DNA of 64,000 nt from Bilabrum cf. latius (Eukaryota). The notes under the pieces were generated by a model, which was not told where the DNA came from, did no database searches, and saw only the letters and a list, made by a program, of their open reading frames with translations. Positions 1 through 37,728 of the stretch are shown piece by piece. The position numbers and the translations under genes are program-made. Within the stretch, counting starts at the first letter, position 1; each line of letters begins with the position of its first letter. The DNA is taken from contig OZ237768.1 in NCBI GenBank assembly GCA_965178125.1, positions 434,001 through 498,000 of the forward strand. The letters run 5' to 3'.

Positions 1-3000
1 TGCCGATGTTGCCCCGGATGATGGTGTTGGGCCGGAGCGTGGTGGGCTGCCCGTTCTCGTCGGGAAACTCGTACACCTGCCTGTCCCAGCTGTTAAATAC
101 TGCGAAGACCATGCAGCAAATTGGGTGGTACACACGACGAACGATTGTAACCATGGCTTGGTTGGGGTCCATAGTGTGCTCATGGTAGGCCTGTTCGGCA
201 TCCACCACGCAACGATGCTGGTGTAGCGAGACGAGATAGCTGTGCAGCTCTGCTAAAGAAAGCCTCCTATTGACTCTGATCGCAACAAAGCTCATTTCTC
301 TGTTGCATCACACTCACGCGCGTGGTCGCCGCTCTCCCTGCATGAGTTCCACAGCACATTGGACTCGATGAGGTCGCCGCCCACACCGCCATCCTGCGAG
401 AGCAAAGGTAGGTCAAGGGAACACACGTACAAAGGATTTAAGTACTGCATGCAGGCAATGAAAACATGCCGTGCGAGGTGGAGGCAACGTGAAGTCAGCA
501 TATCTTGCTGTGGCATTGCCGCCAGCTCACGTTCTAATTAATGTGCGCGCGAGGACCGTTGTAGACAATGTTGCGGGTGTACTTGTTGTGTCCAGCCTTG
601 GCATAGAAAATGGCGCTGCTCTGCTTCTCGTGCACCCCGAATTCCTTGAAGAGGCACTGGTCGATCGTGGTGTTCATGGGAATGTCCAGAGACATGAGGC
701 TGGGGCCGAAGCCCGGAGCGCCCGCTGGCGCGCCCTCGCCGTTGCCCCACAGTGCGATGCACGTATCGCCGTTCCACTCGAACTGCGACTTGGTGATGGA
801 GGCGTCCCTGTTGTACGCAGAGAGCAGCAGGGCATTGCCGTCGAGGCGGGTGAACATGCACGAGTCGATGGTAAGGCCCTCGGTACCCTCTACCTGCACC
901 GCTGCAGTGCGCTGCAGTCCCCAGTCTCCGCCGGATGGCATGCTATGGGGGTCCATGTACGTGTAGGCGGTGTCCCGGAAAGTGACCCCGCGGAAGGTGA
1001 CGTCCCTGACGGGGTAGTTCTTGGAGCCAGCGATGTCAATGAGCACTTTGTTGGTGGGCGCAGCGAGGCTGGGCAGCTCGCCTTCTGCCTGCCCCTTGGA
1101 AGAAGGCGGCGCCCCCGTCCCGTTGTGCCAGAGGTATAGCGCGCGCTCGTCGGTGTCATAGAAGAACTCATCGGGGTAGTCCAGCTCCTCGAACACGTTC
1201 TCGATGAAAAATACGTCCCCCGTGTTGGCACCTCTGCAAGGGAGGGGTCGGAAGGAGAACGGGGCAAGCGACGGAGGGTACGGGCACGGCAATCTGGCAA
1301 GGGACAGAGGGTACGAGAAGGCGATCTGGCAAGGAACCCATGTCCAAACCTAGGCATAATCAGCAAGGCAGCACAGTATTCGGACGCAACTCCTTCATCC
1401 AATGGGAAATTTAGACGAGCATCAGTCACGTCTGCAAGGCCTCAGACAGAAGCACCCTGCCAGGCATACCAGCAATCTCACCGAGCACCCTGGAAGAACC
1501 CGTAGTCCACCCAAAATGTGTTGTTGTCAGGGTCGTAGCGGCTCAGCTCGCCCATCCAAGAGGACCAGTGGCCGGGCCTGCGAGGGAGGAAACCAATCAT
1601 AGAGGCAAGACCACGGGCGATGCAAACACGGGCAGACCCGGTGTTTGTAGGCGTGATCGCCAGGGAGCAGCAGTTGGGGCACTCTGACAGAGAGGACGGG
1701 TGAAAAGCAAATGTCCGTCTCCCACGGAGCTATGCAGATACACATGTTCCCTCTTCTTCTCTTACCTCCAGGTCTGGATGATCCCACCCTTGGTCGTCTT
1801 GTACGGCTGGTGGGGCAGGATGCTCGTGTCTGCCTGGAAACCCGCTGGCACCCGGTAGGTGAATGCACCGCCGCCGCTGCAATGGAGGAAGGGGCACACG
1901 GGGCATGGCACGAGAAGATGTTATATATAAACTGTCCCGCGCAAAATGGCCCCTTCGAGGGGCACGGGCAGCTGCGGTAGCCAAGTCGCCAATCAATATT
2001 CAAGCCCCACAAAATCACGAATATCACGTTACTCACGCAGTGTCGTTGTTGCACCAGTACCCCGCAGCGGGAGTGAAACGTTCGCACACGCCGCCCACGC
2101 CGAGCTTGTACGTCGAGAACATGCCTGAGTTGTTGCGGAACGGGGTCGATGGGGCGAATTGGATGTCGGGGTTCTTGGGAGTCTCCGGTGCCAGCCATGT
2201 CTTGGTGGTCAGGAGGGAACCGAAGCCCAGGCGCTCCGGACTCGGGTTGTTGGGGTATCTCGCGCGGACTGCCCTGGCACCAGAGAGACGGATTCCCATG
2301 ATGCCGTTGGGGAGGATGGTCTCGGTCGAGATGCTGGCTTTCCAGATGTTGGCCGGAGGGGGCGGGGGCGGGGGCGGCAGGTAGCGCCCGCTGGTCTGTC
2401 CGTATTCTTGCACGGGCTTCCAGGTGTTGTCCGTGCGGAAATAGCAGTCGCCTCCGTTGTGGTAGGTCCAGATGGTGCACGCAATCCCGCCGTCCTTCTG
2501 CGCCTTGGTGTAGTTTGCCTGGCAGGCTGCCTCGCAGTCGCCGGCGGAGCCCATGTGGCCCTGGTTGGAGGTGGCGTTGGGTGCGGCGTATTGCATTGCA
2601 TCGGTGTCGGGCGATTCCACCCACTGGCCGCCGGCGCCCCACGCGGGTTCGGCATAGAGCTCAGGGTGCTTCTCGGCGTAGTATGCGGCAGCGGCGCTCG
2701 AGACGTTGTACTCGCTCCAATCAACAGACAGCGGCGCGGCTCCCGCAATATCGGCTTCTTCTCCGTTGTAGTTCTGCACCGTCAGGCCTGAATCTTCCTG
2801 GGTGAGTGACAGGGCCTGGGGAAGGTAGTAGTAGCCCTCGCGCAGCACGACCGTCCGCGGGTTGCCGACCCCGGCAGAGCGGCTTAGCTCCACGGCGTGG
2901 TGCAACGACTTCACAGGAGAATCTAGCGTTCCCTTGTTGCTGTCGCTGCCATGCTTGGCGTCTGCATAGATCGTGACGGTGCTATCGGAAGGAAGGCTGA

Positions 3001-3428
3001 ACCGCGGCGCCCCGGTGTTCTTGTTGATTGCCGAGGGAGGCTTCGCCGTGCACCCGACAGGCTTTTCAGGAGTTCCATTAAGGGCATCAGCCATCTCTTG
3101 AAGCTGCTGCTGGGTAAGATGCGGCTGCACGGCCAGTGCGCGCTCCAAGATTAGCTGCGAAATTGCAACGAGCCGAAGAGCACAACGATATCAGATGTAG
3201 CAGCTCCCGCTTCATTAAACATATTACTTGAATACATGCTACGCAGTCTGTCACATACGAATCAAGTGCGCATGCACGAACACAAGCACGGCAACAGCAT
3301 GAGCAAGGATCGTAGCCAGTAACATGCCTTACATCCCTGAATGAGCAGTCAAACGCGTCCTGGGTGGCATCAGCCATAGCATACTGAACAGCAGCTCCAG
3401 CTGCTAGTAATGCGAACAAGCTACGCAT
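1..3428 (-). CDS. Multi-exon secreted protein with PAN/apple-like and right-handed beta-helix (pectin lyase-like) domains; 3' end runs off the window
   Basis: Signal peptide MRSLFALLAAGAAVQYAMA; GT..AG intron at 3155-3332; motif YADAKHGSDSNKGTLDSPVKSLHHAV; apple-like CEAACQ..CTIWTY..CYFR; beta-helix segments FFIENVFEELDYPDEFFYD and VTFRGVTFRDTAYTYM. Internal exon limits only partly resolved. Confidence 0.8.
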
Positions 3429-3629: not shown

Positions 3630-6600
3630 TCACAGATACCTCCGCCTGGGCAACTTCTTCTTCGCCGAGGGTTGCGCCACCAAGGGCTCCTTTTTGCCCT
3701 TGACCCCGAACGCCGACGCAGAACGATCCACAGTACCGTTCCCTCCAGCACGCGACCCATCCAGAGGTCTGGCACCCGTACCAGCAGCTTCAACGGTTTT
3801 CCTATTGGGCGATCGCGAGCGCGTCACCTCTGGCATCGCAGCGGCGCCCCACACCTCGCCCGCTTCGGACTGCTCCGCAATCTCCGCCCCCCTGAGCAGA
3901 ACATCGGCGCCCTCACCCGGCCCCGGCGGAAACCGCCCCTCCTGCCCCCGCAACAGACCAACACTCTCCAGCAGCTCACCCTCAAGACCTCCCGACGCCC
4001 TCGCGCAACCGGCCGGCCCGGGACCGCCACTCCCGGACGCACGCGCACTCGTCACACCTTGAACAGCAGGGGCATGCGAGGGCAGCCGCATCACGGGCCC
4101 CCTGCTCCCAGCCACCGCTTGTTCCCTGGCCACCGACTGCCTCCTGCCCTGCAGCATGGCACCCAGGGCACCCTGGCCTCGCCGGGCCGCCATCGCCCGG
4201 ACCCTGCCCTGCCGTTGACCCCTGGGGGTGCCCCCCCGCAGTGGGGTCGCTGGCCCCAAGGCGAACCCAGCCAGATCATCGACATCCTGACTTGCATCAC
4301 CGTGCGCTGCACCCTCCTTCGATTCATTTCGGGCCCTCTCGCCAGCAAATGCAGGTCGTTGCTAGATCTAGTCGGGCAGCCCCACTACAGTGGCTTGCCC
4401 TCGCCGATCGTCCCGCCCCCCTGCATCTCTTCCAGCTCCCCTCTGGGCTTCCTGAGATGAGCCAGACCTCGCTGCAACACCACCATGCAGTGCACCCACC
4501 GCAACACGGAGCGCACGTGGCTGACCACCCCCCGTGGTAGCACCACCATGCAGTGCACCCACCGCACCGCCCTGCGCTCTCGGTGCGTTCCCTGTCTCTA
4601 GGGAAGGCAGGTGCCACGGGCTCCCTGCCCCCGAGCCCCTGGTCACCGGTCGGCCGACACCTCCCCGAGCTTCCTGCTGAGGACTGGTACCGGTGCCACC
4701 ATGCTGGGCCGGGCCACCACTGCCAGTACCAGCTGCGCGATGCCCAGATAGAGACTGACGCGCCTTGCTAGATATCTTCGACTCGCTGCTTGCCGTGCCC
4801 GGCCTCAAGTGCCCTCGGGAGGGCGGCAGCCCCGCCTGCAACCTGAATGAACCTTCGTGCAATGCATCCTCGCTCCTAGCGCGAGTCCTATGGGGGGGCA
4901 CCGCACTCGTCACACCGGAACCGCTCGCGAGCGCGGAGTGTGGCCTGGATTTCGTCACCACTGGCATGGCGTCGGATAGGCCGTGTGTATCACCTGGAGC
5001 TGGTGCTGCCGGGGGCTGGGACGTGCTGACCGACATCTGCCTCAGGTTGATCTCCTCCTCGGTTGGATCCACTCGAGGTGGAAGAACCTCGCGTGGCAGA
5101 GGCGGGTGTTGGTCTTCTTCCTCTTCCTGATGTGGTGTCTGGTCACCCGACTCGCCGTGAGAATCCTGACCGCGGCCATGTGTCGCGTGCTTGTCAGCAT
5201 CGTCAGCTGCCCTCTTGCCGTCTGCAGGCGCCGGGGCATAATTAGTGGCCAGCATACCCCTCTGCCCATGCGAAGCATCATGAACTGCACCTCCAACGGA
5301 TTGACCTAGCTCGGACCGGAGCTGGGCTGCAGATGCGGCTGCGGCCATTGTCGCCGCAGCCTGCGCCCGCTCCTGCGCGCTCCTGCCGGGGTGCTCGAAC
5401 ATGGGAGCGACGGGCCGGACGGGCTACATTGCCATGCTGGTGGTTGCAGATGGCTACTTTGACTTGCTCAGTGGGCGGCCTGGTAGTCTGTGGTTCCCGT
5501 GTCCCGGTTGTGCGGCAGGGGCTGCTGGATGTCGACGGGCTGCTGTGTTGGCCCCGGCTTCGCATGGCGGTCCACCTGCATGTGTCTCGCCGCTCTACAC
5601 AGGCGCGTGCGGCCGGTTACTCCCTCTGCTGTGGAGTCTGACATCAGCAGCATGATCCGATCCCACTGACGGCGCAGCCCCTTCCGATCCGGCAGCAGGA
5701 CCAGGCTGCGGCATCGTCTATCTGGGCGGCGCAACTTCGCTATATTGCTCGGCTTTTGTCCCGACGGGCTGAAGTTCATGCTCAATGGAGGACACATCAT
5801 GCATCTGGTGCGTAGTCTCCGCGGTATGGGCTGCAGTCGAGTTGACCACAGGGGCAAGCATACCGACCGTCTGCCCATGCAACCGGTCGCGCTGCTGCAA
5901 CTGTTGCTGCTGCTGCTGCTGCTGCTGCTACTACTATAGATGCGCCATTTCTCGTGCCATCTCCGACTGCCTCCTGGCTCTCCTGGGAATGATCACGGGG
6001 CCAAGATCCACCACACTAGGTCTGGGCCTGACCAGGAGCCTTGAACCACTCGTCACACCTCTTGAAACACTCGTCAGACCACGGGACAAGGGCACTACGC
6101 CGGATTCTTGAGAAGGTTCCTGCGATGAACCGAGTCCAAGGTGCATTTGGCGGCTTGCCCTCCCCACCGAGCCACGGCTCGCGAAGGACGGGTCCGAGGA
6201 TGGTAGCACCACCGGGTCCGGCGGGGTCTTCCCTCGGATGGCCCGCAGCCTCGCCTGCTTGCGACTGGCCCTAGCCGCCTCCATCGCCTCCTCGTCTTCG
6301 GCGGTGCCCGGCACCGGCATCAGCGCGAAGTCCTCCGGCGACTTGCGACCAGCAGCGCCGCTTGCGACGGACGACCCGCCCATGCTGCTGCCCAGAGACC
6401 CGATCGAGGCCTCGTTGGATATCCCCACGGGAGGTGCGCCGGGCCGGTGCCTCTGCACAGGTGTCCTGCCAGTATCATGGAAACCGTGCCGTTTCATAGC
6501 GGTCGGGAGGGAATAACGGGAGTGCTGGCCCGGCTGGCTTCGATCAACGCCTCCGGGATCCGACATCCCGGGATCGAACCCCCCCTTGATGCGCCCGTCC

Positions 6601-9600
6601 AGCCCACCAAAATCAGAAGGGGCCCCACCCTTGCTGGATCGCATGGGGGTGGCCAGATCAGAAGGGGCCCCACCCTTGCTGGATCGCATGGGAGAGGTCA
6701 GCGCGCCTCTCACGGCGCCCCTGGGCCCCTCGCTGAACGCCTGCGACGACGTGCCTATCGGTGACAGCTCCCTCCGACGCACCACGTCTCCGAAGGCAGC
6801 CTTCGGCGATGCCAGGACGGCTTGCGCGTACGTCTCCTGGAGGAGGCGCTGTTGTTCCCTGGCGGCCCGGGCCAGCTTCTGTTTCACTGATAGCGGGCCG
6901 TGGGCACTGCTGCCGCCCCCGGGGCTCGACCGCACGGCATTAGAGCCGTTCAGTTTCCGATGCTCCTCGATCCTGCCCAGCGGCGCGACCGCACTCGGCG
7001 ACGCTCCAGCAGTGCTAAAGCTCTGCACGGTCGCAGATGCCCTGGCAAGGGATCCCATCGGGCTGGCCCTGCCGAGAAACGAGGGGCCGGGTGGAAGCGG
7101 GCTGCCGGCCCTGCCCACCGAGGCACGGCTGCCATCCACCGGTGGATTGACACCCAGCAGGCCCTCCTGGCTGCCTTGCGCGGCGCCCACCATGCTGCGG
7201 AACTGCTTGGACATGTTGCTACCCGAGATGCTGTAGTGCAGCCCACGAGCAGTCACCAGGTCCTCCTCGCCGATTCGGAGCTAGAAATCAGAGCCACGCC
7301 CAGCGCGGGCGCCCTCGCGGCTCGCCCCTCCAAACTCGTGCTAGTCCACGTCATCGAATCCGGCCACCAGGTGCTTCCGAGCCATCTTGGAGGCACCCGA
7401 AAGTGCCCGATCGATCGACTTCTTCACGTTCTTGGGAAGCGTGGTCCGTCGCTTGAACTGGATGGCTTGCTACAGCTTGCCTCGCCTCTTGATGAGGACG
7501 GGTCCGTCATCCCGAGGCCGCAGCAGGCTGCCAGCGGAGGCGCTGCTGGCCAGAGACGAGGCCTCGGGGCCGTTCGCCCTCGAAGTCGCGCTCGAAACAC
7601 CGAGGCTGGTCCGACGGGTGGTCATTGTACCACCATGCCCTTGCGACACAGGGGCAGCGACAGGGTCTTTATCATCATAGCTTGGCTCGAAATCGGTGAA
7701 GGCCTCTTTCACGATCGCGTTCCACTCTGCCAGCCTAGCCCGTTCCACCAGCTCCCGCTGCAGTGAGTCCTCGTCTTCAAGGCGCATCCTCCACAGCTCG
7801 TCGTTCTGGCGCGCGATCTCTCCGAGCTTGAGCTGCATGCGCTCGTACCCCCGCGTGGCAGCATGACGGGCGGCCTTGCTGTAGATGCCTTTCCAGTACT
7901 CGATCGCTTTGTTCTCTTCCGAGTCCTTCTCGGCCTGCCTCATGGCCTCTAGCCTCGCCTCTTCGGCTTCTTTTGCCCTGCGGATTGCAGCGAGTCGTTC
8001 CACCTCGGCGCGTTGCGCCTTAGTCAGCCCGTCGGGGTCGTTCGCGCGCTCCTCGGCCAACCGCCTGTCTCGCTCGATCTGGGCCCTTACCCTGGCTTCA
8101 AGCTCTGCCTGCTCCCTGCTCTTCTGCCTCTAGATCTCTGCTTTTCTCTTCCGTTCTTCCTCTCTGCGCCTCTCCTCTTCTGCCTTGCGGCTGCTCTCCT
8201 GCTCCTCCGTGTCGTCAACCTCGGGTGGTGCATCCTCATCCACAATCATCATCTTCTGCTTGAGGGACTGGTGATTGGACAAGCGCGCCTTCTTCGAAGC
8301 ATCGTCTTGTGCTGGACCGGGCTTGGAGGGCTTGGAGCTTGCAGCATCAGTGATGTCGTCTGGGCCTGGCCTTGCGTGTGCATGTACATCGTCATGTGCC
8401 ACCTCAGGTGCGTCCGGGGGTGGTTGCTCACCCTCACCCTCACCCTCAGCTGGTGCATCAACCAGCCCGGGTCCATCTCTACGGGCATCTCTTGCTGCAG
8501 AGCCAGGCCTCGAATTCTATGCTGAGATAGCCTGATCTGCAAGCACCATCTCCGGTTCTGGCTCCGGCTCTGGCTCTGGCTTCGATTCTGGCTCCGGCTC
8601 TGGCTTCGATACTGGCTCCGGTTCTGGCTTCGATTCTGGCTCCGGATCAGAGTCCGGCATGGCCAGCATGGCAGCCACCGCCGCCACCCGCCACTTGCCC
8701 AAGCTCGAGGCTCCCGCAAGCGCGTTTGATAGCCCTTGCATTGCCTCTTTGCCGAAGAAAATCTCGCCCTCTAGCCCATGAGCCACACAACGTCGAGTTT
8801 CTGCCGAAATACACAAGGCCAGGCCTGGCAAATGCGTGCCAGACTCGGAGTCAGAACCGGGGTTAGTCTTGGATAGACCACCACTCCCAGTTGCAGACGT
8901 CCCACCGGCCGATCCTTCAGCACTCAAGCCATTCCCAAGCACAACGCCAGCCACTGTGCCGCTTCCTGATGCACCATCCTAGGATTCATCAAAACTCGGA
9001 GTTGCTGGCACTTGCTCCTGCAAGGATTTTGGGACTCGGTCTGGCAGGCCGTCGAGAGCAATTCCTTTCACGCAGCCGAGCAGCTTCTGCGACCATTCAG
9101 GCGCAACGCAACCTCCTTCCAGTGTACACTGCAGCGCCCTAGGAATCTTTGACAACTGCTCTTTGGACTCGCGCACCTCCTCCGGAGGCAACGGGTCCGT
9201 TTCGTGGGGTCTCCTATCGCCGCTGCTGTCGGTGCCCCGTGACTTAGAGGCTGAGATCATCTTCTTCTTTTTAGCGCTTTTCTTTGTCTTCCTCTTCCCG
9301 GGTTTGCTGCTCTGTCCTTTGTCCGCCGCTCCCTTGCTGCTGGCCCTTGCAATTAGCTCAGCTGCAGCCTTTGGCAAAGGAATGCTCGTGAACCTCCGCA
9401 GCAGTTCAAACCCCCGCAGCGACGCAACCAGCGCGTACTGCCCCCGAAGCCTCAGAAGCTCAAGAGCGAGTCGGGACCTCAGGTGCCAACGCCTAAGCCC
9501 AGAGCGCTCCCTGGCCTGGTACCACCTCCTGAAGGCGTCCCACCGCCGGAGGGCGACTCGAGCCGCGCGCGTGCGTGCTGCGCCTGCACCCTGCTGCGCG

Positions 9601-12600
9601 AAGCCACGGCTTCGCGCCAGGCTCGTTTTTTGGGTCCCTGCTCTCGTTTGTGATGATGCCATCATTCTCCTCTTTTCGTTGCGGGTCACCTGCGCCCTCG
9701 GGAGAAGTTTCCCGACCTCCTCTGTCATCGCCGACAACAGCAGCCCTGTAGACCTAGCGGCGTCCGGTCCGCTCTCATTTCCAGCAGATGAACCCGCACC
9801 GCTTGACGGTCCTTCAGCAGAACCAGAACCAGAACCAGAACCGGGACCAGGACCAGACCCGCCCTCGACTGCAGTCACCTGCAGCATCCTGACCTCCCAG
9901 AGCGGGTCACCCTCCTCTACCTCGGCTGGGACGAACCTTTGAGGATCCACGATCAGACGGGCAGTCACACCGCCATGAACCTGTGCCTGTGGATCCCGTC
10001 GGGCCTGCTCCAGTGCATCTCTCACCCCATCGAATTCCGCCGCAGCCACCAGTTCCCGGGAGAGAAACACCGCCCTAACTGGGTTCTCCGTCGATGCCCA
10101 CCAGCGAGTGAACGCTGCTAGTCGAGACAGGAGAGCTCCGTGGGCATCGCCAGCAGGCTTGTCCCTGCCGTCCTCGCGGTTTGGGGCAGGCAGTGAAGAA
10201 GCAGCCGCATGGATATCGTCCTCCACGGTGACGAGTGCGTCAGGCACCGCAGAGCATAGCACGGCCGGCAGCTCGGTTGCATGGGCAGCTGTAGCTGCAG
10301 CTTCTTCGGCGCACTCGCTCCCGAAGCAGACTGGCGGCTGGTGCTCCAAGCCGAGGCACTCAAGCACGCGTGCAATGGGCACCCCTTGTACCTTGATCGC
10401 AATCGCACCGAGCTCTTCGGCAAGTCCTGTGGAGCTGCCAGTGCCAGCAGCGGGGCAATAGGACCGGGGTGCCCCCTCCTCCTGACCTTCAGCTGCCCAT
10501 TCACCCGCGCCGCGACCCTATCGGATAAACTCCACGTCGTCCGGATTCGTCTGTGACAGCTGTAGGTGCGGCCCAAGCTGCACCGCATCCAAACACGGGG
10601 GCTTGTCGACTGCCCCTTTAGACTCCGAATCCATCGCAATCGTCATCCGCATCAGTGCCTCTGTGTCGCTGGGCCCCGGCAGCGCAACCCCCGCCCGACT
10701 CGCTTCCTTTCTGACCATCCCGTCACATGCAGCCGCCATTATCTCAGTGGCTCTATCGAGAGGATACATGGCAGACCATGCCACGCCCCTGAAGTGGTAC
10801 TACAAGGCGTCTTGGCCCGCCTTTGCCCTTTGTTTCTTCCACCGCTTGATCTTGATGATGAGCCTAAGGAGGACTTTGTACGCGACTGCCTCTCTCTTCT
10901 CCTCTAGCAGCACATCTTTGCTCTTCTTGTCCTTGACGAAAAAGGACGCGAATGCGTTGAAATGCGATATTGCGCGTAGCTATGGCTTAGCCCGGGCAGA
11001 TTTTCCTGCGCCATTTGGTCCAGACTCTCCCAAATCACCTGCCCTCCGAGGCTGGTATGACACTGGTCTGTTGGCGATGTGCTGCTGGCCCTGGGGTAGC
11101 AGCACCTCACCGGCTGTGGATGACCTCCCACTGGTCGCTCTAGACGGCGGAGACTCGGCTGAGGCCGGCACTGCATGTGGCCGGTCTGATACGCTGTCAT
11201 CCAGGCGGCTCGCGACACTGCTGGGCATCCTGCTTCTGGGCGTTCGGGACCGCAGTGGAGGCGACAGGCTGGACATTTCCTGCGGCGCTTCCTCCTGCTG
11301 TGTCCGCGCCATGGTTGGTCTGCTCTCCGCCCGTCTCATCATGCGATGGTCAGAGCTGGCGTCCAAAGTGGCGGGAAGGCCGGACTCGGAGCGGCGGAAA
11401 GGGGGCGGGAGTTGGGGCGCATCACCATCGCCATTGCTGCCTGCGCTCGTCGATGAGGTCCCGCCGGATGGGCCGTCGCCTCTGTTCGAAGAGGAACCCT
11501 GGTCCTACTGCGAATCCATCAATTTCTTTACCTTGCCGAAATCGGATCTAGATCGCCGTATCCTGTGCGTTGGGTGCATCGAGGCAGCAACAGCAGCCGG
11601 AGGGGTAGGGGTGCCCGGTGTCTCGCTCTGCTCTCGATGCAATTCGGCGTCCGTTGACTGGTTCTCGTGCTTCTATTGGTCCGCTGTGTTCGTGGCATCA
11701 CTGCTGTCTACGGATCCAGAAGGCATTGAATCTCCAGCTGCTGCAGGTGAAGAGGATACGGGTGCGCCCTCGGCCATTTTGGGTAGATTTGACTGAGCGG
11801 GACTAGCTACGATACCGTCTTTGCCTGGTGCAGTTTCGTCTGCACCCGCACGCCAAGCCGCGACTTCCGCTGGTTGGTGACTCGGATCAAAATGACCCGC
11901 GACAGGTATGCTTTCGCTTCCTTTGCGTAGCCCTGCCTGCTGCGCTTCCTGCAGTTGTTCCTTGCCTACAGGCGCACTGACAACTGGACCATCCTCTACC
12001 TTCTAGCTGGAGATGGGGCCAGCAGTAGGGTTCCTTTCCGCGAGCGAGGCACCGGAACCGTCAACGTTGCCCGCCTTCACTTTCGCGCCGTCTTCATCTT
12101 CAGCCTTTGGCTGCGCACCAATGCCGCCGGGGTCACCAACGCTGCTTCGATCGCTACCCCTCACGCCCTCCCCAGAGTCTGCGGAACTGCTGGTTGCGGC
12201 TACCTCCCAGCCCGAGACCGGTTCATCCGATGCAGGCTCGTGGTACATAGGCTAGCCTTCGCTACCTTTCGAAGCGTATGAGTGGTCTGCGCCAGCATCC
12301 CGACCTGTTGCTTCACTGGTCCCTCCTGGGGGCTCTGACGGCGGCTCTGTTGGCGCAGTCCCAGCGGATTCTGCAGGCCTCTAGTTGTCATCGTGTGCAT
12401 GTGATTCGGTTGTTGTGTCGCTGCCAGCCTCTGCAAGCGGTCTGCCCTCAAGCATGCCTGTTGTCCCGCTGACAGGCCCAGCGTCTGTCGCAGCCTTCAA
12501 CAACTCGGTTCCTTTGGCTGGAGCTGCATCTAAATCTCGCGACTGGCCGATGGGTCCCTGCTCATCGATTGCTTTTTCATCGAGGCCACCAGAGCTTCCG

Positions 12601-15600
12601 TTACGACCTTCATGTTCATGTGCATCTGCCTTGGGGGCATCAACAGGCACCGAGCGCGACACGATACTCTTTGGGGTACCTGCACTGTCTTTCACCTCAG
12701 GCTGGGCCTCCGCTGATACAATTTTGCTACTACCCAAGTCGCCGATGGACTCATTAGACGTTGGAGAGGCTGCAGTTTCCACGTCGGTCGCTTTGGCCGT
12801 GTCGTTCTCTGAGCCTACGGATGCACGAGAGGTCTCAATGGCCGGCCCGCTGCCACTCTCAGATTCGCCACCATGATGGGCTTCAGAAGACGTCGCAGCT
12901 TCAATTTGGGCTGAAGCTTCTCTTGAATTCTCACGCTCCCCACAAGTGCTGGTAGCATCGCCTTTGTGAACCCGATCCACGGGTGTTGGTACGCTGCCAG
13001 TAGTCTCAACGATGGTGCTTTCATCTACCCCTTGCCCCGCACAAGGGGTGCTATCACCACCGCTAGGCTCCACGGGATCTGACGACCCTGCGTCACCGGG
13101 CACACAAAGATCGGCCGGTTCGCTCGCCTGGCCGGATTCGGCGCCTCCATGCAGATCTACCTCTGCTTCTTGTTCCTGTGGCTGCTCCTCGTGGGTGAGT
13201 GATATGCTTCCTGCAGCGATAGCAGTGGTATCCTGTTGGCCGCCATTCTGGCTGTCAACCTGCTGCATTTGCTCCTGCCTGTGCTCCTTCATCACTAGGG
13301 GCCGGTCGGCACCCGTTCTTTCCTCTTGCACATCGGGGTGCAGACCATGCTCCGATTCAACAGCGGAAGCTGCTGTGTCTATGCCGCGTTGCTCTACCTC
13401 CGCACGGACAGGTGCACTTGTGTCAGCATTCGACTACCCCTCCATGGCTCTCATTTGAGAAACGTCATCCTATTCCTTATCCTGGTACTGCTCCTCTAGA
13501 ATATCTTCCCGAGCGACAGCCTCGGCTGCTTCGATCGACTTGCGGATGAACTTGCGCCTGGTCGCGTGTGCGCGACCAAGCCATTGCACGAACCCGCCCA
13601 ACGCAGCCACGAGCTGCTGCGGGGACACATCGGCCGGTGTGCCTTGCCCGCCAGACGCATGACCCCCACCATCGCCGCCGTCAGCCGATCCACCGGTGGA
13701 CTATTTCCCTTTGGCGCGGTCGATGCTATCGATGTCGCAGCCGTGGCTGCCTGCAGCCCGCCTGACTTCCTCGTCCTCCAGCGCATCCTGCACCACGATC
13801 TTCTTGGCGCCCTCGTCCAACGACTCCCAGAACGCGTCGATGGCGGTGTCCTGACTCGTGATGCCGCTCATCGTGGCCAGCACTGCCTTAGTCCTAGCAG
13901 GCAAACGGTCGATGTGCGTGTACCATGCTTCGAACGAAGACCGCATCATGCGGCAGCTTGGGTCCGAGGCTGACAGCTACAGCGGACGAGGCACAGGGAC
14001 GCCGGCCGCGCCTGCCTCGGCCGCAATCTGCGTGTCCTCCACCGCCTGCGTCAGCTCGAGCAGTTGTTCCCTGGAAGTGAGGCTCTCCCAGGCCACGACG
14101 AAGTCGTTGAGCATCGTGCGGTCGGCACCAGTGCTCCTGCCGCTCTCCTCCTTCTCTTTCCCATCGCCCTCGTTCAACTCGCTCGTGTGCCGCGCCGGAC
14201 CGTCAACTCGTCCACCCGTCCCGCCGATCCCGCGGCCAGCACTCGTCACAGCTCCCCGGCCTCTCCGTGCCCGCCGAACGTCACCTCCATTTCCCTCAGC
14301 CTCACCCTGGCTCGGACCAAAATGCCTCACGAATAGATCGGAGTCGTCGGGCAGCTCCATTGATCGCAGCATCATGCTAGCACCCCACACGTCAGAGTTG
14401 ATCGTGCTCATCCTGAGTGGGACCCTGCCCGCACTACCGTGCGATGCACCTGCCTGCTCGGCCTCCCGCCGATGCCGGACCATGAGCCGACGCTCCTCCT
14501 CCTCCCTGGCTTTCTGATTCCGGTTCCACTCCACGGGGGTCGACTCATCCGTCGGCGGTGCAACGAGGGAAGCAGAGGTGCCGCCCGCCGGGGTGGGCAC
14601 ACCCACGGCCCCTGCGTACTCGGACACGGCCTGGATCGGCGAAGGGGAGCGATCGCGAAGGCGCTGCCTTTGCGTATTGGAACGGACGCCTGCGCCCGAC
14701 AATGCGTGCCCGTCTAGCGAACCTTCGCTGTCCGATCCCGCAGAGGAAAACCCGCTGGCGATCAGCTGTGCAGACTCCGGTGCCGGTGCCGGGGCAGGGG
14801 CAGCTCCGCGCATCCCTTCCCCCAGTCGGCTTGCAACGCTGCTGTCCATGGAAGCGGCGATGGAGGACTGCTTCAGCGGAAGGCTGGTTCGCCTCTGGCT
14901 TCGGGCTCGCTTGCTTTCGCTGACTCCTGCTGTGATCACGACGCGCAAGGTCGCCGGATCTGCCCCTGCCGCGATTGCCTCGGCGGCTCGTTTTTCGGCC
15001 CGCAGTGTGTCCATTTCGGGGGCTAGAACCAGGCTTACAGTGCTCTTTGGCAGGGCAACTGGCTAGCCAGAAGATGCTTGTCCAGAAGCACCTGCGGCCT
15101 GCTGACTTGCTCGGTGACACACACTGGCTGGCGGTCGCCGACGGCGTCCTCTTCTCGGCCCAACTGTTGACTGCTAGCCTTTCTCTGATACTGGCGTCGA
15201 CGTGGCATGCAGCGAGCCTTCGTACCAGCGTTCAGAGAGCTCTGCATCGCTCATCGACGCGAGTGAGGCGGACTGCTTCAAGTTCAGGTTCCCCTTTGCG
15301 GCCTTGGAAGCAACTTCCGATCTAAACAATTGCTTGTCGTGTACTTGCGACTCGGCAGTGCCTGTCCTGCTTCCATTACCCCTCTAATGAGCATAGAAGG
15401 CACCTATTCCGCCCGATGGCGTCATGCTATCAAGCTACCAACCGCCCGGGGTGTCCAAACGATCCACCAGGGATGGCACCAAACTAATAAGATTTGGTGT
15501 TGCCCTATTGTCGACCCGATCAACTCCAGGTCTGCGAGCTGACCGCTTACCCTTGGCAGAGGGCACCTAAAACGTGTCCGTTGGAGCTCTCGTAGCTGCT

Positions 15601-15722
15601 GCTGCTAGCTCAGCCCAATTTATACCCACATCCGACCCATAGTCAGGATCACTTAGTGCTGCAGTTAGTATTTCAGTTCTTTTTACGCGTGAGCCGCCTT
15701 CGGGGCCGTCTGAACTGTCCAT
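3630..15722 (-). CDS. Very large (~4030 aa) low-complexity/coiled-coil host protein, continuous when TAG is read as sense
   Basis: Track ORFs 13977-15014, 13701-13949, 12381-13331, 12003-12248, 10980-11366, 10518-10784, 8979-10382, 8517-8954, 8130-8402, 7470-8060, 5934-7256, 5718-5900, 4368-5402 and 3630-4259 share one frame. The gaps contain TAG but no in-frame TAA/TGA. ATG at 15722, TGA at 3630. Start position is inferred. Confidence 0.8.
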
Positions 15723-16364
15723 TGCCTGAGGACACTATCGAAATAAGATTCAGTGCGGTCCTCTCGATCTCAAGTGCAGGTCGAACTTGATTTCATTCCA
15801 ATTTTGTGTAATGAGGGAAATTGCCTTATCTTGGCCTCGCGAGCGTACTACTAGTACGGCTACCTTTACTGCGATCTCGTCACGGGCCGTACCGGCGGTA
15901 GGGTCCACGTTGAGGCTGCAACCGGTGCTCCCTTCTGGCTGCACAATCAAGCCATTGTGAATGACACCATCTCGCGCAGCCATGATACTGCCATTCGGGT
16001 GTTAGTTCGATTTCATACGAAGCATAACCCCTTGTGAACACGGTTAGACCCATGTGATGTTGCACCTGAACCTGTCGGAATATCTCCGCAGATGGTATTA
16101 AGGAGACAGAGTCTGATTCGTTGTTGACGTCAAATGAGATGATAAGCGTCTGTGCGATGAGGATGTCATGGATTGAAGTGACTTGTAACGAGTGGGCTTC
16201 ACTTGAAGCAGTGACTCTTGCAATCATTTCAATTCGAGCCCTTGGCGAGACATATCGCATGCGTCCACACAGAAAAAAAAGAGGGCAAGAGCGATCTGTG
16301 CCATGATGAGGATGAGCCCCACCCGAGCTTTCACGACCGCCGAACAACCATCTCAGAGGCTCAT

Positions 16365-18014
16365 TTATTTCTGCGAGTGGGACACATAATCGAACACATT
16401 CTCGAACTTGGACAACGGGTATCCCTCGGGTCGACTGTCGCCATACGCCTCCCAGATATAGGTGAGAGTAGCCTGCTGGAGCAAAACCGAGCTATGCTCA
16501 TCCATCTCCAACGCCCTGGCCGTGGGCTGCATGTAGGACGTGTCGATGCTCCACAGGTACGCCCCGCTGTCCATGTCAACGAGAGCTAGATCTCCCGCGC
16601 GGTCGCACTCCTCCCCCGTGATGAATAGTGCGCACTTCTGGGCCTTGCCCCGGGTATCCGTCTTCCAATTGATGTTCCCATTCCCATTCGTCTGCACCAG
16701 GTTGCAGTCGTCCTGCACAATCAGAGAAGCCTTGTCATGGCCCTTCACCCGGAGCGACTGCCCCATGGCCAGCACCTCATCGTCCCATAGATGGTGACCC
16801 TGGGCGGCAGGTCGCTCAGCAAGCGCCTTGAGGTCGCAGCGAGGAGCCCACCCATTGATGGCTGCCTGCAGCGCCGCCGTCTTGAGACCATTGCCGAAGG
16901 TCTTGTCGTCGTCAGGACTGATCAGATCTTCCGACCCCGCAGACCACGCGATCGCACCTCCCTGCTGGAACAGGATGGCATTCCCATCCCCCTGCAGACG
17001 AAGGGTGTCTGCACCCGGGTGCATCAGCGAGGCAGGCACCCGCCAGATGTACTGCCCGGAGGCGCTGTCCACGATGGCCAGATCGCCGTGGGTGTCGCAC
17101 CCGTCCCCCGTGATGACGAGTGCGCACTTCCCCTCGGTACCCTTGGCTGCCGTGTTGGTCGCAAAGCGCGCCTTGCCCTCTCGGTACACCACCAGGTTGC
17201 AGTCTCCCTGCATGCGCAGCTCGGACCACACCCCCGCCCTCAAGGCGGCCCCGGCTCGCAGCACCTGCCCCGAAGACAGCACGTCGCCGCCAGTCACTTG
17301 GTGGTACGATGATTCCAGGGCCCCTGCATCGCAGTGCAGACTGTGCACGTCCTCCCGCACCTACAGATCGAAGTGGAGGAACCCTCCACTGTTCTATTTC
17401 TCATCTTGTTTGGTGCTCCACAGCGGCTACCCGCCTTCCTGAAGGAGAACGGCATTGCCGTCCCCTTGGACCACAAACGTGTCTACCTTAGGCGTGAAGA
17501 TAGAGGATTGCACCCGCCAAAGGTATTTGCCCGTTTCTGTGTCGATGATGGCCAGGTCTCCCTGCGTGCTGCATGATGCATCCGTCATGAGCAGCGCACA
17601 GTGGTCGGCGGGATGCTCCTCGGGGTTGCCCTGGGTGAACGAATCCCACTCGCCATTGCCATCGACAAAAAGTTTGCAGTCAGCCCGGAGCTACATCTTC
17701 GTCGAACCCTTGGACAAGGCATTATCGGGCTTGTCGGTGGCGGAAAGCAGAACCTCGCCTCTCCGAAGCCTGTCGCCCTCTGCCGGCTTCCTCGCGGCCA
17801 AGGCGCTCACATCGCAGGAGAATGCATCAACTTTGTCAGAATCTGGGTTTGCATGCCAAATGTTGTCGCCCCGGAACCAGCTGCTGGGGATGAACCTGGT
17901 CAACGACGTAGAGCCAGTGCTGCGAAGGTGCTGCTGGCCTTGTGCTCGTCGCCCGTTCACACTGACCGCCGAGCATGCGATGAGAGCTATCGAAGTAGAA
18001 ACAATTGATCGCAT
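16365..18014 (-). CDS. Secreted bulb-type (B) lectin-domain protein, copy A (549 aa, 4 in-frame TAG)
   Basis: Signal peptide MRSIVSTSIALIACSAVSV; repeated QxDxNxVxY-like motifs (MQGDCNLVVY, LQGDGNAIL, VQDDCNLV); one frame broken only by TAG; ends in TAA. Confidence 0.85.
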
Positions 18015-23056: not shown

Positions 23057-24691
23057 TCATGCATCCTGGGAGTCGTTTAGATAACTGAACATATCATCGA
23101 ACTTTTCATTCTCCTCCGAGTGAGCGTACGATTCGTGACACGTACTCCAGATATCATAGTACGTACCTTCCTGGGAGAGCATCAGGTGAGACCAAAGATA
23201 CAGCACCCTGGCCGTGGGCCGCATGTAGGACGTGTCAATGCTCCACAGGTACGCCCCGCTGTCCATGTCCACGAGAGCGAGATCTCCCGCGCGGTCGCAC
23301 TCCTCCCCCGTGATGACGAGTGCGCACTTCTGGGCCTTGCCATGGGTGTCCGTCTTCCAGTAGATATTCCCATGCCCATCCGTCTCCACCAGGTTGCAGT
23401 CGTCCTGCACCGTCAGAGAGGCCTTGCCGTCTTCCCAAGGCTGGAGCGACTGCCCCATGGCCAGCACCTCATCTTCCCAAAGATGGTATCCCTGGGCGGC
23501 AGGTCGCTCAGCAAGCGCCTTGGGGTCGCAGCGAGGAGCCCACCCATTGATGGCCGCCTGCAGCGCCGCCGTCTTGAGACCATTGCCGAAGGTCTTGTCG
23601 TCCTCAGGACTATCCAGGTCTTCCGACCCAGCAGACCACACGATCGCACCTCCCTGCTGGAACAGGACGGCATTCCCGTCCCCCTGCAGACGAAGGGTGT
23701 CTGCACCCGGGTGCATCAGCGAGGTAGGCACCCGCCAGATGTACTGCCCGGAGGCGCTGTCCACGATGGCCAGGTCGCCGTTGGTGTCGCACCCGTCCCC
23801 CGTGATGACGAGTGCGCACTTCCCCTCGGTACCCTTGTCCCTCGTGTGGGTCGCAAACCGCGCCTTGCCCTCTCGGTACACCACCAGGTTGCAGTCTCCC
23901 TGCATGTGCAGCTCGACACCCTCGCCCGCCTTTAAGGCGGCCCCGGCTCGCAGCACCTGCCCCGGAGACAGCACGTCGCCGTCGATCACTTGGTGGTACG
24001 ATGATTCCAGGGCAGCTACATCGCACTGCAGACTGTGCACGTCCTCCCGCACCTACAGATCGAAGTGGAGGTATCCGCCACGGGGGTTCGGATTCATAAA
24101 ATCTTGTTTGGTGCTCCACAGCAGCTGCGCGCCTTCCTGAAGGAGAACGGCATTGCCGTCCCCCTGGACCAGAAACGTGTCCACCTCGGGTGTGAAGACA
24201 GAGGATTGTATCCGCCAGATGTACTTGCCAGTATCCGTGTGGATGATGGCCAGGTCTCCCTGCGTGCTGCACGATGCATCCGTCAAGACCAGCGCGCAGT
24301 GGCCTGCAACCTTGTGCTCAAGGGTGTTCGTGACGACTGAATCAATGATCAGCCTGCAGTCATTTCGGAGCCATGCCTACGACTCAGCATTGGTCAAGGC
24401 GTTGAGCGGGTCGGTGGCGGAATGCAGAATCTCGCCTCTCCGGAGCCTGTCGCCATTTGCCGGCTTCCTCGCGGCCAAGGCGCTCACATTGCAGGACAAC
24501 TTGTCAAGTTTGTCAGAATCCGGGTGTGCATTCCAAATGTCGCGGCTCTGGCTGCTACTGCTGGCGTGAACCGAGGCCGACAACGTGGAGCCAGCGCTGC
24601 GAAGGTGCTGCTGGCCTTTTGCTCGTCGCCCGTGCACACTGACCTCCAAGCAGGCGACGAGAGCCATCAAAGTAGAAACTATTAATCGCAT
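23057..24691 (-). CDS. Secreted B-lectin protein, copy C (544 aa, 2 in-frame TAG)
   Basis: ORFs 24377-24691, 24053-24286 and 23057-24052 are in one frame joined by TAG; signal peptide; ends in TGA. Confidence 0.85.
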
Positions 24692-26686: not shown

Positions 26687-27107
26687 CCCCCCGCTACGGT
26701 AATAAATAAATTTATTCCCTTCGGTTAAGGAAACAAGTTTCAATAATTACGTTCAGTCAGAGCTAAAGCTCTTCCCTCTCTCCATTCCTTTTGTCGCTAG
26801 TCGCTCCAAAAGTCAAGGTGAGCCTCTTCATACTGCTACTTCATATAACTGCTTTATCCTTCTAATTATAGAAAATCAATTATATATAAAACTCTATACG
26901 ATGACCATATCCACAAATTGCGTATTAGTATATGTATTATTTAGCAAAACGTGGATGTAGCCCTCTTGTGAAGGTGTTATGGGACTCTAGCCATTTTCTA
27001 GCCAAAAGTTCCATCACTTTATGGGACTCCATTATTCAACCTTCTAAACTACCTTCATTATACCCCCTTATCCTCGCTTATACCTTCACAAATGGAACAA
27101 ACGCGCT
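26687..27107 (+). repeat. Left terminal inverted repeat (421 bp)
   Basis: Starts CCCCCCGCTACGGTAATAAATAAATTTATTCCC; reverse complement of 53208-53628 (one mismatch noticed). Confidence 0.95.
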
Positions 27108-27176
27108 TTTATTTTTAAATTGTTATAGAGCGTTTAAATTGACTTAAAAAATATATTTATTATAGGTATATACAGA

Positions 27177-28196
27177 ATGGAATTATTAAAATGGGAAAAT
27201 GGAACCTTGAAAGCTACACAACCAAAAGAATATTATGAACGAAATGGATTTTAGGTTAATTTTGAAGGGAAAACCTATCATATAGCAATGGATAAAGATT
27301 ATATAAGATGGTTTTTGAAGGACTATAAACCTTATGAAATAATAACAACATTCATAACAGATATGAGTGAAGTATTCAATGGATAGGATAAATTTAATGA
27401 ACCTTTGAATACTTGGGATGTTTCAAATGTTAAGGATATGAGTTTAATGTTTCAAAGTTGTAGAAGCTTTAATCAACCATTGAGCAATTGGGATGTTTCT
27501 AAGGTTGAAAAAATGTCGTCTATGTTCTATTTTTGTTCTAAATTCAATCAATCATTGAACGATTGGAATGTTAGTAATGTTAGGGATATGAGTGGTATGT
27601 TTGGTTCTTGTTCAAGATTCAATCAACCATTGGATAATTGGGATGTTTCTAAGGTTGAAAATATGTCCTCTATGTTTAATGGATGTTGGAACTTCAATCA
27701 ACCATTGGATAATTGGGATGTTTCTAACGTTGAAAATATGTCCTCTATGTTCCATTATTCTGAATTCAATCAATCATTGAACGATTGGAATGTTAGTAAT
27801 GTTAGGGATATGAGTGGTATGTTTGGTTCTTGTTCAAGATTCAATCAACCATTGGGTAATTGGGATGTTTCTAACGTTGAATATATATCCTCTATGTTTA
27901 ATGGATGTTAGAACTTCAATCAACCATTGGATAATTGGGATGTTTCCAATGTCTAGAGTAAGTTTTAGATGTTAAAAGATTGTGAAAGTTTCAATCATTT
28001 AGAGAACGGTATTAAGGGTATAAGAATTGATTATTCTACAACATTGATACCGTTGTTAGAAAGACGAAAACATAAAACCATTAAAAAAACAAAGAAATAT
28101 AGAGAGGAATTAATTGCTAAAGCGTGGCACCCTTCAAGATTAGATTGGGTATTGGATAACGAGGAGCGAGACGAGATAGAGGATAATTTTAATTAA
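27177..28196 (+). CDS. DUF285/BspA-like repeat protein 1
   Basis: Repeats FNQPLxNWDVSNVxxMxxMFxxC; continuous through TAGs; ends in TAA. Confidence 0.85.
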
Positions 28197-28285
28197 TAGA
28201 ATTTTAATAATATTAATGATTATTTAATATTATAGTGTGAGTTTAAAAAGGCTTAAATAATATATTTATTATAGGTATATACAGA

Positions 28286-29268
28286 ATGGAAGTTTTAAAA
28301 TGGGAAAATGGAACCTTGAAAGCTACAAAACCAAAAGAATATTATTTTAGAAAAGATAATTATATTGTGAAATTTGAAGGTAAAACATATTACGTAGCTA
28401 AAGATACAGATTTTCTTCTTCACGCATTGTAGTTTTTGAAACCTGAATTATTAGTAACAACAAAACAACGGCATGAGCCGGAACGGCCACTGCCGCGCTG
28501 CCCCGCCCCCTTCCCTAAGGAAGGAGACGAGGGAATGCCTCGCAAGCTGCTGGTCGCACTGGCGGTTGCAACCTCGCGTTGGTAGACCGGAGCCTGTGTT
28601 CGAGTCTCGAACGCATCGCCACATCAACCCCGAACCCCATTCGGCGTTAGCATTAGAATATGTTAAACCTATTTGATAATATGATAATTGAATCACCAAT
28701 AAATTCATGGGATGTTTCAAATGTTAAAGATATGACCGATATGTTTTATGGGTGTCATTCGTTTAATCAACCTTTAAATAACTGGGATGTTTCAAATGTT
28801 GAAGATATGGGCGGTATGTTTAATGAGTGTCATTCGTTTAACCAACCATTGAATAATTGGAATGTTTCAAATGTTGAAGATATGAGTGAAATGTTTAATG
28901 ATTGCCATTCATTTAACCAACCATTGAATAATTGGAACGTTTCAAATGTTAAAGATATGTGCGGAATGTTTTATGATTGCCATTCACTAAATCAACCTTT
29001 AAATAACTGGGATGTTTCAAATGTTGTAGATATGGAATGTATGTTTTCTAATTGTTTTAGTTTTAATCATTTGGAGAATGGAATTAAGGATGAACGAATT
29101 GATTATTCCACGACATTAATCCCATCATTAGAAGAGCGGAAAGATGAAACAATTGAACAAACTAAAAAAATCAAAGAAGAATTAATTTCTAGAGCGTGGC
29201 ACCCTTCAAGATTAGATTGGGTATTGGATAACGAGGAGCGAGACGAGATAGAGGATAATTTTAATTAA
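28286..29268 (+). pseudogene. DUF285/BspA-like repeat protein 2, interrupted by a 185-bp GC-rich insertion
   Basis: Paralogue of protein 1 with the same N- and C-termini; removing 28466-28650 restores frame and spacing (TTKHQNM versus TTFITDM). Confidence 0.75.
28466..28650. mobile_element. 185-bp GC-rich host-type insertion without an obvious TSD
   Basis: Abrupt GC shift inside an AT-rich viral gene; homologous to 21588-21856. Confidence 0.7.
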
Positions 29269-29309
29269 GTTTTATTATAATAATTATTTTATTTTTAATT
29301 ATTATAGAT

Positions 29310-29657: not shown

Positions 29658-29704
29658 ATTTTTGAATTTTAATAATACTATTATTATTATTATTAATATA
29701 TAGT

Positions 29705-30594: not shown

Positions 30595-30634
30595 ATAATT
30601 AATTTATAAATATTAAAATCAATTAATATATATA

Positions 30635-37720: not shown

Positions 37721-37728
37721 ATATATAA

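Follow-up and report, generated by a model that had tools for sequence, protein, structure and literature searches.

Does a protist nuclear genome read UAG as a codon for an amino acid and retain UAA as a stop? This question is raised by a 64,000-nucleotide (nt) stretch of contig OZ237768.1 (GenBank assembly GCA_965178125.1, positions 434,001 to 498,000, entered under Bilabrum cf. latius), which is called the window hereafter. GC-rich flanks (about 60% guanine plus cytosine, GC) surround an island of about 30% GC in the window. The flanks hold a giant gene, a tandem array of lectin genes and a gene for a protein with CLU and TPR_12 domains, while the island is an integrated virophage/polinton-like element (Table 1), and TAG codons lie within the reading frames of all of them. 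Our analysis indicates that the organism reads UAG as glutamine (Gln, Q) and keeps UAA and UGA as stops, a reading to which we assign a probability of roughly 0.86. A code in which UAG alone is recoded to Gln is of a known, rare kind, and this organism is a further case of it.

Stop codons in the giant frame

The preliminary description of this locus had reported a 12.1-kb frame with dozens of TAG codons and neither TAA nor TGA, and the counts bear it out. Read from stop to stop, the frame at 3630..15749 on the minus strand is 4039 codons long and contains 33 TAG and no TAA, its sole TGA being the terminator at 3630-3632. Counted from the ATG at 15722, the coding sequence (CDS) contains 32 TAG, no TAA and the terminal TGA. 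The five alternative frames of the same stretch contain 39 TAA, 298 TGA and 144 TAG per 20,196 codons, which predicts about 67 TAA plus TGA and about 29 TAG for the giant frame. TAG is thus not avoided within this frame (33 observed), and the probability of finding no TAA or TGA in it is about 5e-30; the minimum of TAA plus TGA in 300 mononucleotide shuffles of the stretch was 59. Among the TAN codons of the gene, TAG is the commonest (32), followed by TAC (16), TAT (9) and TAA (0).

As a control, each stop codon was freed in turn and the longest open frames were compared in the host flanks and in the element. Freeing TAG lengthens the longest frames of the GC-rich flanks from 512 to 4039 codons and from 775 to 1770 codons. 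The 512-codon host maximum of the standard code stays at 512 with TAA freed and reaches 893 with TGA freed. In the AT-rich element, the longest frame grows from 371 to 929 codons when TAG is freed, with others of 697, 659 and 509 codons, and remains at 371 when either TAA or TGA is freed. Freeing TGA produces only the scatter of frames that random frames in GC-rich DNA predict, and freeing TAA has no effect. Long frames therefore open only when TAG is freed, in host and element alike.

Ala, Gly, Ser, Glu and Arg abound in the 4030-residue product of the giant gene, which also has repeats of the KPEPEPES type, a charged coiled-coil-like stretch and a polyglutamine (polyQ) tract. It matches no Pfam family, shows no recognisable domain and looks like a giant, mostly disordered protein; the gene is transcribed.

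Termination at TAA and TGA

The CLU/TPR gene and the four full lectin genes, for which the same behaviour had been claimed, do carry in-frame TAG codons and end at TAA or TGA (Table 1). In the host CDS set as a whole (8,614 codons), there are 51 TAG and no in-frame TAA or TGA. The element set (14 frames of at least 200 codons, 5,541 codons) holds 81 TAG and no internal TAA or TGA, bringing the pooled count of in-frame TAA and TGA to zero in 14,155 codons. All six host genes with a visible 3′ end stop at TAA or TGA (two of them at TGA), and the element frames end at TAA in 12 cases and at TGA in two. The 20 gene ends together comprise 16 TAA and four TGA, and none needs TAG. The earlier statement that UAA has not been reassigned holds on both counts, the lack of any in-frame TAA in 14,155 codons and the use of TAA at 16 of 20 gene ends.

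The positions of these ends agree with those of related proteins. The C-terminus of the major capsid protein, at TAA, aligns with the C-termini of its homologues and shares their C-terminal motif. The 120 aligned homologues of the primase-helicase end at a median of 3 residues beyond the end of the query, and only one of the 120 exceeds it by more than 20. Among the lectins, three paralogues share their stop position in the alignment, after KSQK, and lecB stops one residue later, after SQDA.

In lecA, lecC and lecD (stops at 16365, 54277 and 56314), the end of the gene reads KSQK TAA ATG AGC CNC TGA, with a conserved back-up TGA four codons past the TAA. The partial fifth lectin copy at 18404-19000 on the minus strand has CAA in place of this TAA and continues to the back-up TGA (KSQKQMSL).

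Identity of the amino acid read at TAG

The primase-helicase of the element, with its 20 TAG codons counted from Met, was aligned with 120 full-length database homologues; 313 homologues were found at E<=1e-3, the best of them at 49% identity. The TAG at 48573-48575 on the minus strand specifies residue 577, a column that is invariant and holds Q in 120 of 120 aligned homologues, and this is the most informative single TAG in the window. Another TAG, at residue 440, faces Q in 65 of the 120. Profile log-odds over the 17 well-occupied TAG columns of the helicase give Q +10.9 and the next residue, A, -5.8, followed by K and N; Q is thus 16.7 nats apart from the next residue, and E, K, L, S and Y all score lower. 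Applied to control codons, the same procedure returned the correct residue in 12 of 14 cases, the failures being CAG and TCA (5 and 9 columns).

An independently fetched set of 27 IMG/VR loci, compared by tblastn, has Q at residue 577 in 25 of 25 and at residue 440 in 17 of 25, and among the residues that face TAG in the IMG/VR helicase matches Q is the most frequent (17% of 337). These loci share almost only the helicase with our element (29 helicase high-scoring segment pairs versus 7 over four other genes), and they add little beyond the helicase itself. The capsid gene gave no pattern match in IMG/VR and has no close relative there.

The capsid protein, for which HMMER finds 55 homologues, has close copies elsewhere. 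Two protein fragments from other contigs, P0155 and P0210, are 96-97% identical to it and carry Q at four of five and five of five window TAG sites, respectively, or nine of ten in total, the exception being A. Both fragments start at the first Met past the TAG at codon 295 of the window gene (TAG295), which suggests that they were called with standard stops and that CAA or CAG stands at the TAG sites in these copies.

Host genes give further, thinner evidence for Gln. In the giant gene, three consecutive TAG codons at the head of the polyQ tract (Table 1) are followed immediately by (CAG)7 CAA CAG TTG CAG CAG. Alignment of the lectin paralogues reveals three TAG columns in which CAG also occurs, and a lectin homologue, P0211 (76-79% identical), carries Q opposite a TAG of lecA and of lecB. 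Taken with the helicase and capsid alignments, these comparisons argue that TAG is decoded as Gln. The proposal of a reassignment of UAG to sense in the host nuclear code is supported by the frequency of TAG in transcribed frames and its presence at Gln positions.

TAG codons in RNA-like contigs

Two runs with contigs, X5 and X7, bear on whether the TAGs are edited or spliced out of transcripts. They behave as RNA because both include a spliced contig of the gene adjacent to the giant gene, with six GT..AG introns gone, both have zero depth over the intergenic positions 18010-18676, and in both the lectin genes (depth 1,500-2,900) are covered roughly 100 times as deeply as the giant gene (about 17).

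Four X5 contigs lie on the giant gene, at 3570-5890, 5943-6641, 6663-15045 and 15018-15845, and show no difference from the genomic sequence, no gap and no joint. They cover 12,020 of the 12,093 bases of the CDS and 30 of the 33 TAGs of the frame; the three TAGs outside this cover are those of the CAG repeat (52 nt, 5891-5942), where the contigs break. The parts of the gene that X5 does not cover (5891-5942 and 6642-6662) were excluded from the evidence. The cover reaches from a point 60 nt below the TGA to one 123 nt above the ATG, and it therefore fits a single unspliced transcript. Removal of the TAGs from transcripts by editing or splicing, which had been named as something to look for, is thus contradicted at 30 of the 33 sites, although low-level editing would be compatible with these data as contigs can mask rare variants. 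At least part of the stretch is present in eight runs from four studies, six of which contain at least half of the sampled words, up to a fraction of 0.90.

Genomic setting and the integrated element

Table 1. Positions of the host genes, the integrated element and the element genes in the window.
Feature	Positions	Strand	Remarks
Beta-helix gene	1..3427	−	3′ part off window; exons 3333-3427, 2037-3154, 1765-1876, 1482-1576, 530-1233, 318-392, ..99
Giant gene	3630..15722	−	intronless; 4030 codons plus TGA stop; 32 in-frame TAG; low-complexity protein
TAG TAG TAG at head of polyQ tract	5928..5936	−	in giant gene; read directly; Q3272-3274
lecA	16365..18014	−	three B_lectin-like domains, signal peptide; 4 TAG; TAA end; contig depth 1,500-2,400
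lecB	23057..24691	−	lectin gene; 2 TAG; TGA end
Integrated virophage/polinton-like element	26687..53628		26.9 kb, about 30% GC; terminal inverted repeats and target-site duplication
Putative packaging ATPase	36620-37720	+	Walker A GKSGSGKS, Walker B-like LFILDD, read by eye
Major capsid protein	39666..41555	+	629 amino acids; 9 TAG; TAA end; 55 HMMER homologues
Polymerase-like frame	44116-45645	+	509 codons; beside the separate Prim-Pol/helicase gene
Primase-helicase	47526..50315	−	925 amino acids from Met; 20 TAG (21 stop-to-stop); TAA end
lecC	54277..55944	−	lectin gene; 1 TAG; TAA end
lecD	56314..57996	−	lectin gene; 6 TAG; TAA end
CLU-domain/TPR_12 gene	58687..63999	−	5′ end off window; 1770 codons seen; 5 TAG; TAA end

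The flanks are eukaryotic chromosome and the contig is nuclear, because six GT..AG introns are removed from one of its genes and a virus-like element lies between 5-bp target-site duplications. The introns belong to the beta-helix gene, on which an X5/X7 contig, about 3 kb long, leaves out six segments of 137-248 nt with CT..AC ends, equivalent to GT..AG on the minus strand. Its exons join into one frame with no TAA or TGA and a single TAG, in exon 530-1233. The Beta_helix match in Pfam (E 7.6e-5) is below the Pfam cut-off, and we describe the product as a right-handed beta-helix protein; an exon of the gene looked up in the protein atlas gave scores of at most 0.84 from mixed taxa.

All recognised host genes (1-25000 and 53630-64000) lie on the minus strand, and the lectin array comprises four full copies in addition to the partial fifth. 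The CLU/TPR protein matches the Pfam families TPR_12 (E 2.2e-43) and CLU (E 6.5e-10), and used as a query it returned 33 matches, all to TPR proteins at 20-27% identity and mostly unnamed or bacterial. The lectin query returned five matches, namely two fragments at 79-80% identity and three distant ones. Exact look-up of five window proteins gave only the two-member cluster of P0155, and a metagenome scan with the lectin alignment gave one distant locus (27%) among 591 pattern matches. The window contains no tRNA gene by ARAGORN and no Rfam match, hence no rRNA. The 21-nt spliced-leader motif of dinoflagellates has no match in the window at up to 3 mismatches, which is a weak test as the leader is added in trans.

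The element is located inside the tandem lectin array and looks complete. Its terminal inverted repeats, called at 26686-27107 and 53208-53629, are 422 nt long and 100% identical, and a 5-bp duplication, TGCAA, is present at 26682-26686 and 53629-53633. The perfect terminal repeats suggest a recent insertion. Pfam reveals an rve integrase with a chromodomain (6e-11), a minor capsid protein of the Sputnik V18/19 family (E 5.6e-7) and a Prim-Pol domain (6.4e-16) with PriCT_2, besides DUF285 (twice) and DUF5872; the match to MCP_V20_C is weak (E 0.0039) and below the cut-off. The frame at 36620-37720 probably encodes a packaging ATPase, as judged from its Walker motifs. Another frame, at 44116-45645, carries the motifs YDINSHYPA, NSLWGKL and IHTDSI, which by eye resemble those of family-B DNA polymerases. 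For both frames there was no Pfam match, and sequence searches of the PDB gave nothing below E 0.1. The virophage/polinton hallmarks present here are thus capsid genes, an integrase, a replication protein, terminal inverted repeats and a target-site duplication, with the ATPase by motif alone; no protease was identified among the element genes.

Three further features were seen within the element. One is a stretch of about 50% GC at 51400-53200, flanked by the last AT-rich gene on one side and the right inverted repeat on the other. It includes frames at 51459-52217 on the plus strand and 52401-53027 on the minus strand, and cargo, a second insertion or host DNA captured by the element could account for it. 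Another is a repeat, about 100 nt long with copies 67-88% alike, which occurs in both orientations at 26863-26960, 38341-38438, 42877-42994, 50510-50627 and 53334-53451, at intergenic places and inside both terminal repeats, and may serve as a common promoter or regulatory module. In the third, at 41925-42077 and immediately downstream of the capsid gene, a 20-nt unit is repeated in tandem in about 7 copies.

Codon usage and proposed mechanism

The genes of the element use TAG as a sense codon and so share the code of the host. Their usage of Gln-type codons differs. In the host (n=423) there are 51 TAG, 284 CAG and 88 CAA, while the element (n=248; genes at 27138-51452) has 81 TAG, 19 CAG and 148 CAA, so that TAG is about four times as frequent as CAG. 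A change of CAG to TAG would be a synonymous C-to-T transition under the proposed code, and TAG would accumulate under AT pressure, which would explain why TAG makes up a small share of the Gln codons in the GC-rich host and a large share in the AT-rich element.

In the code that we propose, UAG would be read as Gln and termination would occur at UAA and UGA only, the pattern of NCBI table 15. Decoding would require a tRNA-Gln(CUA) that pairs with UAG and not with UAA, as is suggested by related cases in PMC5304391 and PMC11687900. Such a tRNA would most simply arise from tRNA-Gln(CUG) by one anticodon change (compare PMC5304391). The release factor eRF1, whose N-domain reads stop codons through the GTS, NIKS and YxCxxxF motifs (PMC5304391), would in turn have lost or weakened its recognition of UAG and kept that of UAA and UGA, again by comparison with PMC5304391. 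An eRF1 substitution like T32G of Iotanema would agree with such a loss. Decoding of UAG must be efficient, since leaky readthrough of 32 TAGs in one gene of 4030 codons would give no product. The nearest relatives of the helicase (45-49% identity) are full-length database proteins, which would have no in-frame TAG if they were called under the standard code, as we assume. The use of TAG by the element is therefore likely to have arisen in a lineage confined to hosts with such a code.

Alternative explanations

Several points weigh against reading UAG as Gln and UAA and UGA as the only stops, and most of them concern either the residue or the reach of the sample. The Gln assignment comes mainly from viral genes, and host-only evidence is thinner. 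GAG occurs in as many lectin TAG columns as CAG (three), TGG in two and AAG in two to three, besides others, and opposite four other TAGs of the host the homologues P0211 and P0212 carry H, A, K and R. Paralogue comparison of the lectins gives ratios of nonsynonymous to synonymous substitution (dN/dS) of 0.75-0.94, which lend no independent support to translation past their TAGs. The alignment of the capsid protein with distant homologues is uninformative alone (Q +0.4), and P0155 and P0210, if they were called with standard stops, could come only from stretches free of TAG. One might thus suppose that TAG is sense and specifies another amino acid, such as Glu, Lys, Tyr, Leu, Ser or Trp, as UAG specifies Leu, Ser or Glu in other lineages (PMC11687900); several helicase TAG columns are indeed dominated by D, K or E. 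We consider this very unlikely. The only invariant TAG column is Q throughout, Q has the clear lead in the log-odds, the near-identical capsid copies have Q at all but one site, and a TAG triplet heads the CAG repeat. The columns dominated by D, K or E lie at variable positions of surface type, where columns of CAA and CAG show the same behaviour, the CAG control having itself ranked D over Q. The residues and codons other than Gln that face host TAGs are single-step neighbours of TAG at variable positions, which is compatible with Gln without being proof of it.

The sample, one 64-kb window with about 14,000 codons from 7 host genes and one element, also leaves room for TAG terminators or sense TAA elsewhere in the genome. 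Frames were defined from TAA/TGA to TAA/TGA, so a gene truly ending in TAG would be read through by construction, and only genes with comparable C-termini counter this blindness. Reassignment may then be ambiguous or partial, UAG being Gln internally and yet ending genes in some contexts, or UAA being sense occasionally, on the way to a code in which both UAA and UAG (UAR) are Gln. Only about 20 gene ends were available, and context-dependent codes exist in other protists (PMC4967479, 10.1101/2022.04.12.488043), those of the Condylostoma, karyorelict and Blastocrithidia type. Such an intermediate is nevertheless unlikely. If TAA could be read as sense, it should be frequent in an element of 30% GC with 148 CAA and 81 TAG, yet no internal TAA is seen in it; the capsid, helicase and lectin proteins end at TAA where their homologues end, and TAG shows no depletion against the other frames.

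Could the TAGs instead be untranslated, because they are edited or spliced out, lie in decaying pseudogenes or are CAG misread as TAG in assembly? Endogenous viral elements of protists often carry spurious premature stops from assembly errors (PMC10120064, PMC8547959), and our RNA argument has its own weak side, X5 being labelled 'RNA? (probably DNA)' and none of the runs that contain the stretch being recorded as RNA, so that its RNA status follows from its behaviour. However, the X5 contigs cross 30 of the 33 TAGs exactly and without joints, and the stretch recurs, at least in part, in runs of four separate studies. Decay or error would also yield TAA, TGA and frameshifts, none of which is present in the 4039 codons or in the 14 element frames; nor would errors put a TAG where Gln is invariant. 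We regard this explanation as hardly credible. The same low standing is given to a recoding that is viral and not of the host, either because the contig is viral or because UAG is suppressed during infection by a virus-borne tRNA. A tRNA gene can be part of a virophage or giant-virus genome, and one of suppressor type is among those reported (Paez-Espino et al. 2019, PMC6905037). Against this, genes with TAG flank the element on both sides in DNA of 60% GC and include the six-intron gene and the highly expressed lectins, the element is delimited by its inverted repeats and target-site duplication, and neither the window nor the element contains a tRNA gene. The gene for eRF1 also lies outside the window, and the decoding mechanism is a prediction.

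Comparison with known codes

Nuclear codes that split UAG from UAA are few, being found in Iotanema, Protocruzia tuzeti, some phyllopharyngeans, a rhizarian, Scotinosphaera and one oligohymenophorean (PMC11687900, PMC5304391). Iotanema spirale (Fornicata) reads UAG as Gln and keeps UAA as a stop (Panek et al. 2017, BMC Biol 15:8, PMC5304391). The present code is like it in the codon, the amino acid, the use of UAA as main terminator and the predicted combination of a tRNA-Gln(CUA) with an altered eRF1. Iotanema is an anaerobic metamonad known from its transcriptome (PMC5304391), whereas here we have genomic DNA, with about 60% GC, GT..AG introns, a CLU-domain gene, an integrated virophage-like element and UGA as a stop (in two of six host genes). 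UAG is also Gln in two lineages of phyllopharyngean ciliates and in Protocruzia tuzeti (McGowan et al. 2024, PLoS Genet, PMC11687900), where, as here, it is a fixed and widely used Gln codon and UAA is the preferred stop. Phyllopharyngeans are ciliates with 27-54% GC (PMC11687900), in contrast to a 64-kb chromosomal stretch of 60% GC with introns of 137-248 nt. These features of the genome, together with its gene array on a single strand and its CLU-domain gene, do not seem to fit the listed organisms with UAG as Gln, which are ciliates and one fornicate.

Codes in which UAR is Gln (table 6) occur in many ciliates, ulvophycean green algae, hexamitin diplomonads, Streblomastix strix and Amoeboaphelidium protococcarum (PMC11687900, PMC5304391; for the aphelid PMC6299283). 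They share with the present code the change from stop to Gln, TAG being one transition from CAG. In them, however, TAA is also Gln and TGA is the sole stop, while here no TAA stands in frame and most gene ends use it. For this window the UAR code is ruled out, as there is no in-frame TAA in the codons counted and freeing TAA opens nothing. With UAA kept as a stop, UAG is recoded as Leu in the rhizarian exLh and in a ciliate metagenome-assembled genome and as Ser in Scotinosphaera, and an oligohymenophorean reads UAG as Glu and UAA as Lys (PMC11687900). In these cases too UAG and UAA are decoupled, but the amino acid differs, and Leu, Ser and Glu score far below Gln here.

Two kinds of integrated virus resemble our element. 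The endogenous polinton-like viruses (PLVs) of Streblomastix strix use the UAR=Gln code of their host, from which a long association has been deduced (Bellas et al. 2023, PNAS, PMC10120064). The likeness lies in a small integrated double-stranded DNA virus written in the deviant code of a protist host; unlike them, the present element has a UAG-only code and another host, and it is complete with perfect terminal repeats and a duplication. The EMALEs of Cafeteria burkhardae (Hackl et al. 2021, eLife, PMC8547959) are likewise low-GC elements of about 20-30 kb in a high-GC chromosome, with terminal inverted repeats, a short target-site duplication, an rve integrase, a primase-helicase and capsid genes. 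They differ in that the minor capsid protein here matches the Sputnik V18/19 family, and the parts of PMC8547959 available to us make no statement on a deviant code.

Three organisms were considered as hosts of such a locus and rejected. Cafeteria has a GC content of about 70%. The accessible parts of PMC8547959 report no deviant code for it. Oxyrrhis marina has 58% GC and low-GC PLVs, yet those elements have a different gene set, and the available text of PMC12721341 contains no report on the code. In Amoeboaphelidium, TAG and TAA are both reported to be Gln (PMC6299283). Full-text searches of the literature, with subscription journals and supplements largely outside their scope, returned no GC-rich protist with UAG as Gln and no UAG-recoded virophage.

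Implications

Codes that split UAG from UAA bear on the constraints that eRF1 and suppressor tRNAs place on the evolution of the code. As this organism is represented by genomic DNA, by RNA data and, it seems, by several strains in culture, the predicted tRNA-Gln(CUA) and changes in eRF1 would be directly readable. There is also a practical consequence. Gene callers that use the standard code truncate the genes of this organism at each TAG, so that annotation of both host and virus looks 'degraded'. The close database relatives P0155, P0210, P0211 and P0212 are fragments (325 amino acids of the 629 of the capsid protein, and 185-285 of the 550 of the lectins), which is what standard-code calling on a TAG-recoded genome would give. 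The element also shows that a small DNA virus has followed the code of its host, and its range of possible hosts and helper viruses is narrowed by this.

A wider reading, which we put forward tentatively and rate slightly below an even chance, is that the window comes from a previously unreported and independent origin of the UAG-only Gln code, in a culturable, GC-rich, intron-bearing protist that is neither a ciliate nor a metamonad. That the organism can be grown is suggested by the RNA and DNA runs from four studies that contain the locus. In this reading the virophage has been written in the code for so long that its TAG has come to outnumber CAG by about 4:1, and by implication the giant virus on which it depends would also be written in, or tolerant of, a code with UAG as Gln. 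If true, host, giant virus and virophage would form a three-level system on one deviant code, and this system would be tractable for studying how eRF1 discriminates UAG from UAA.

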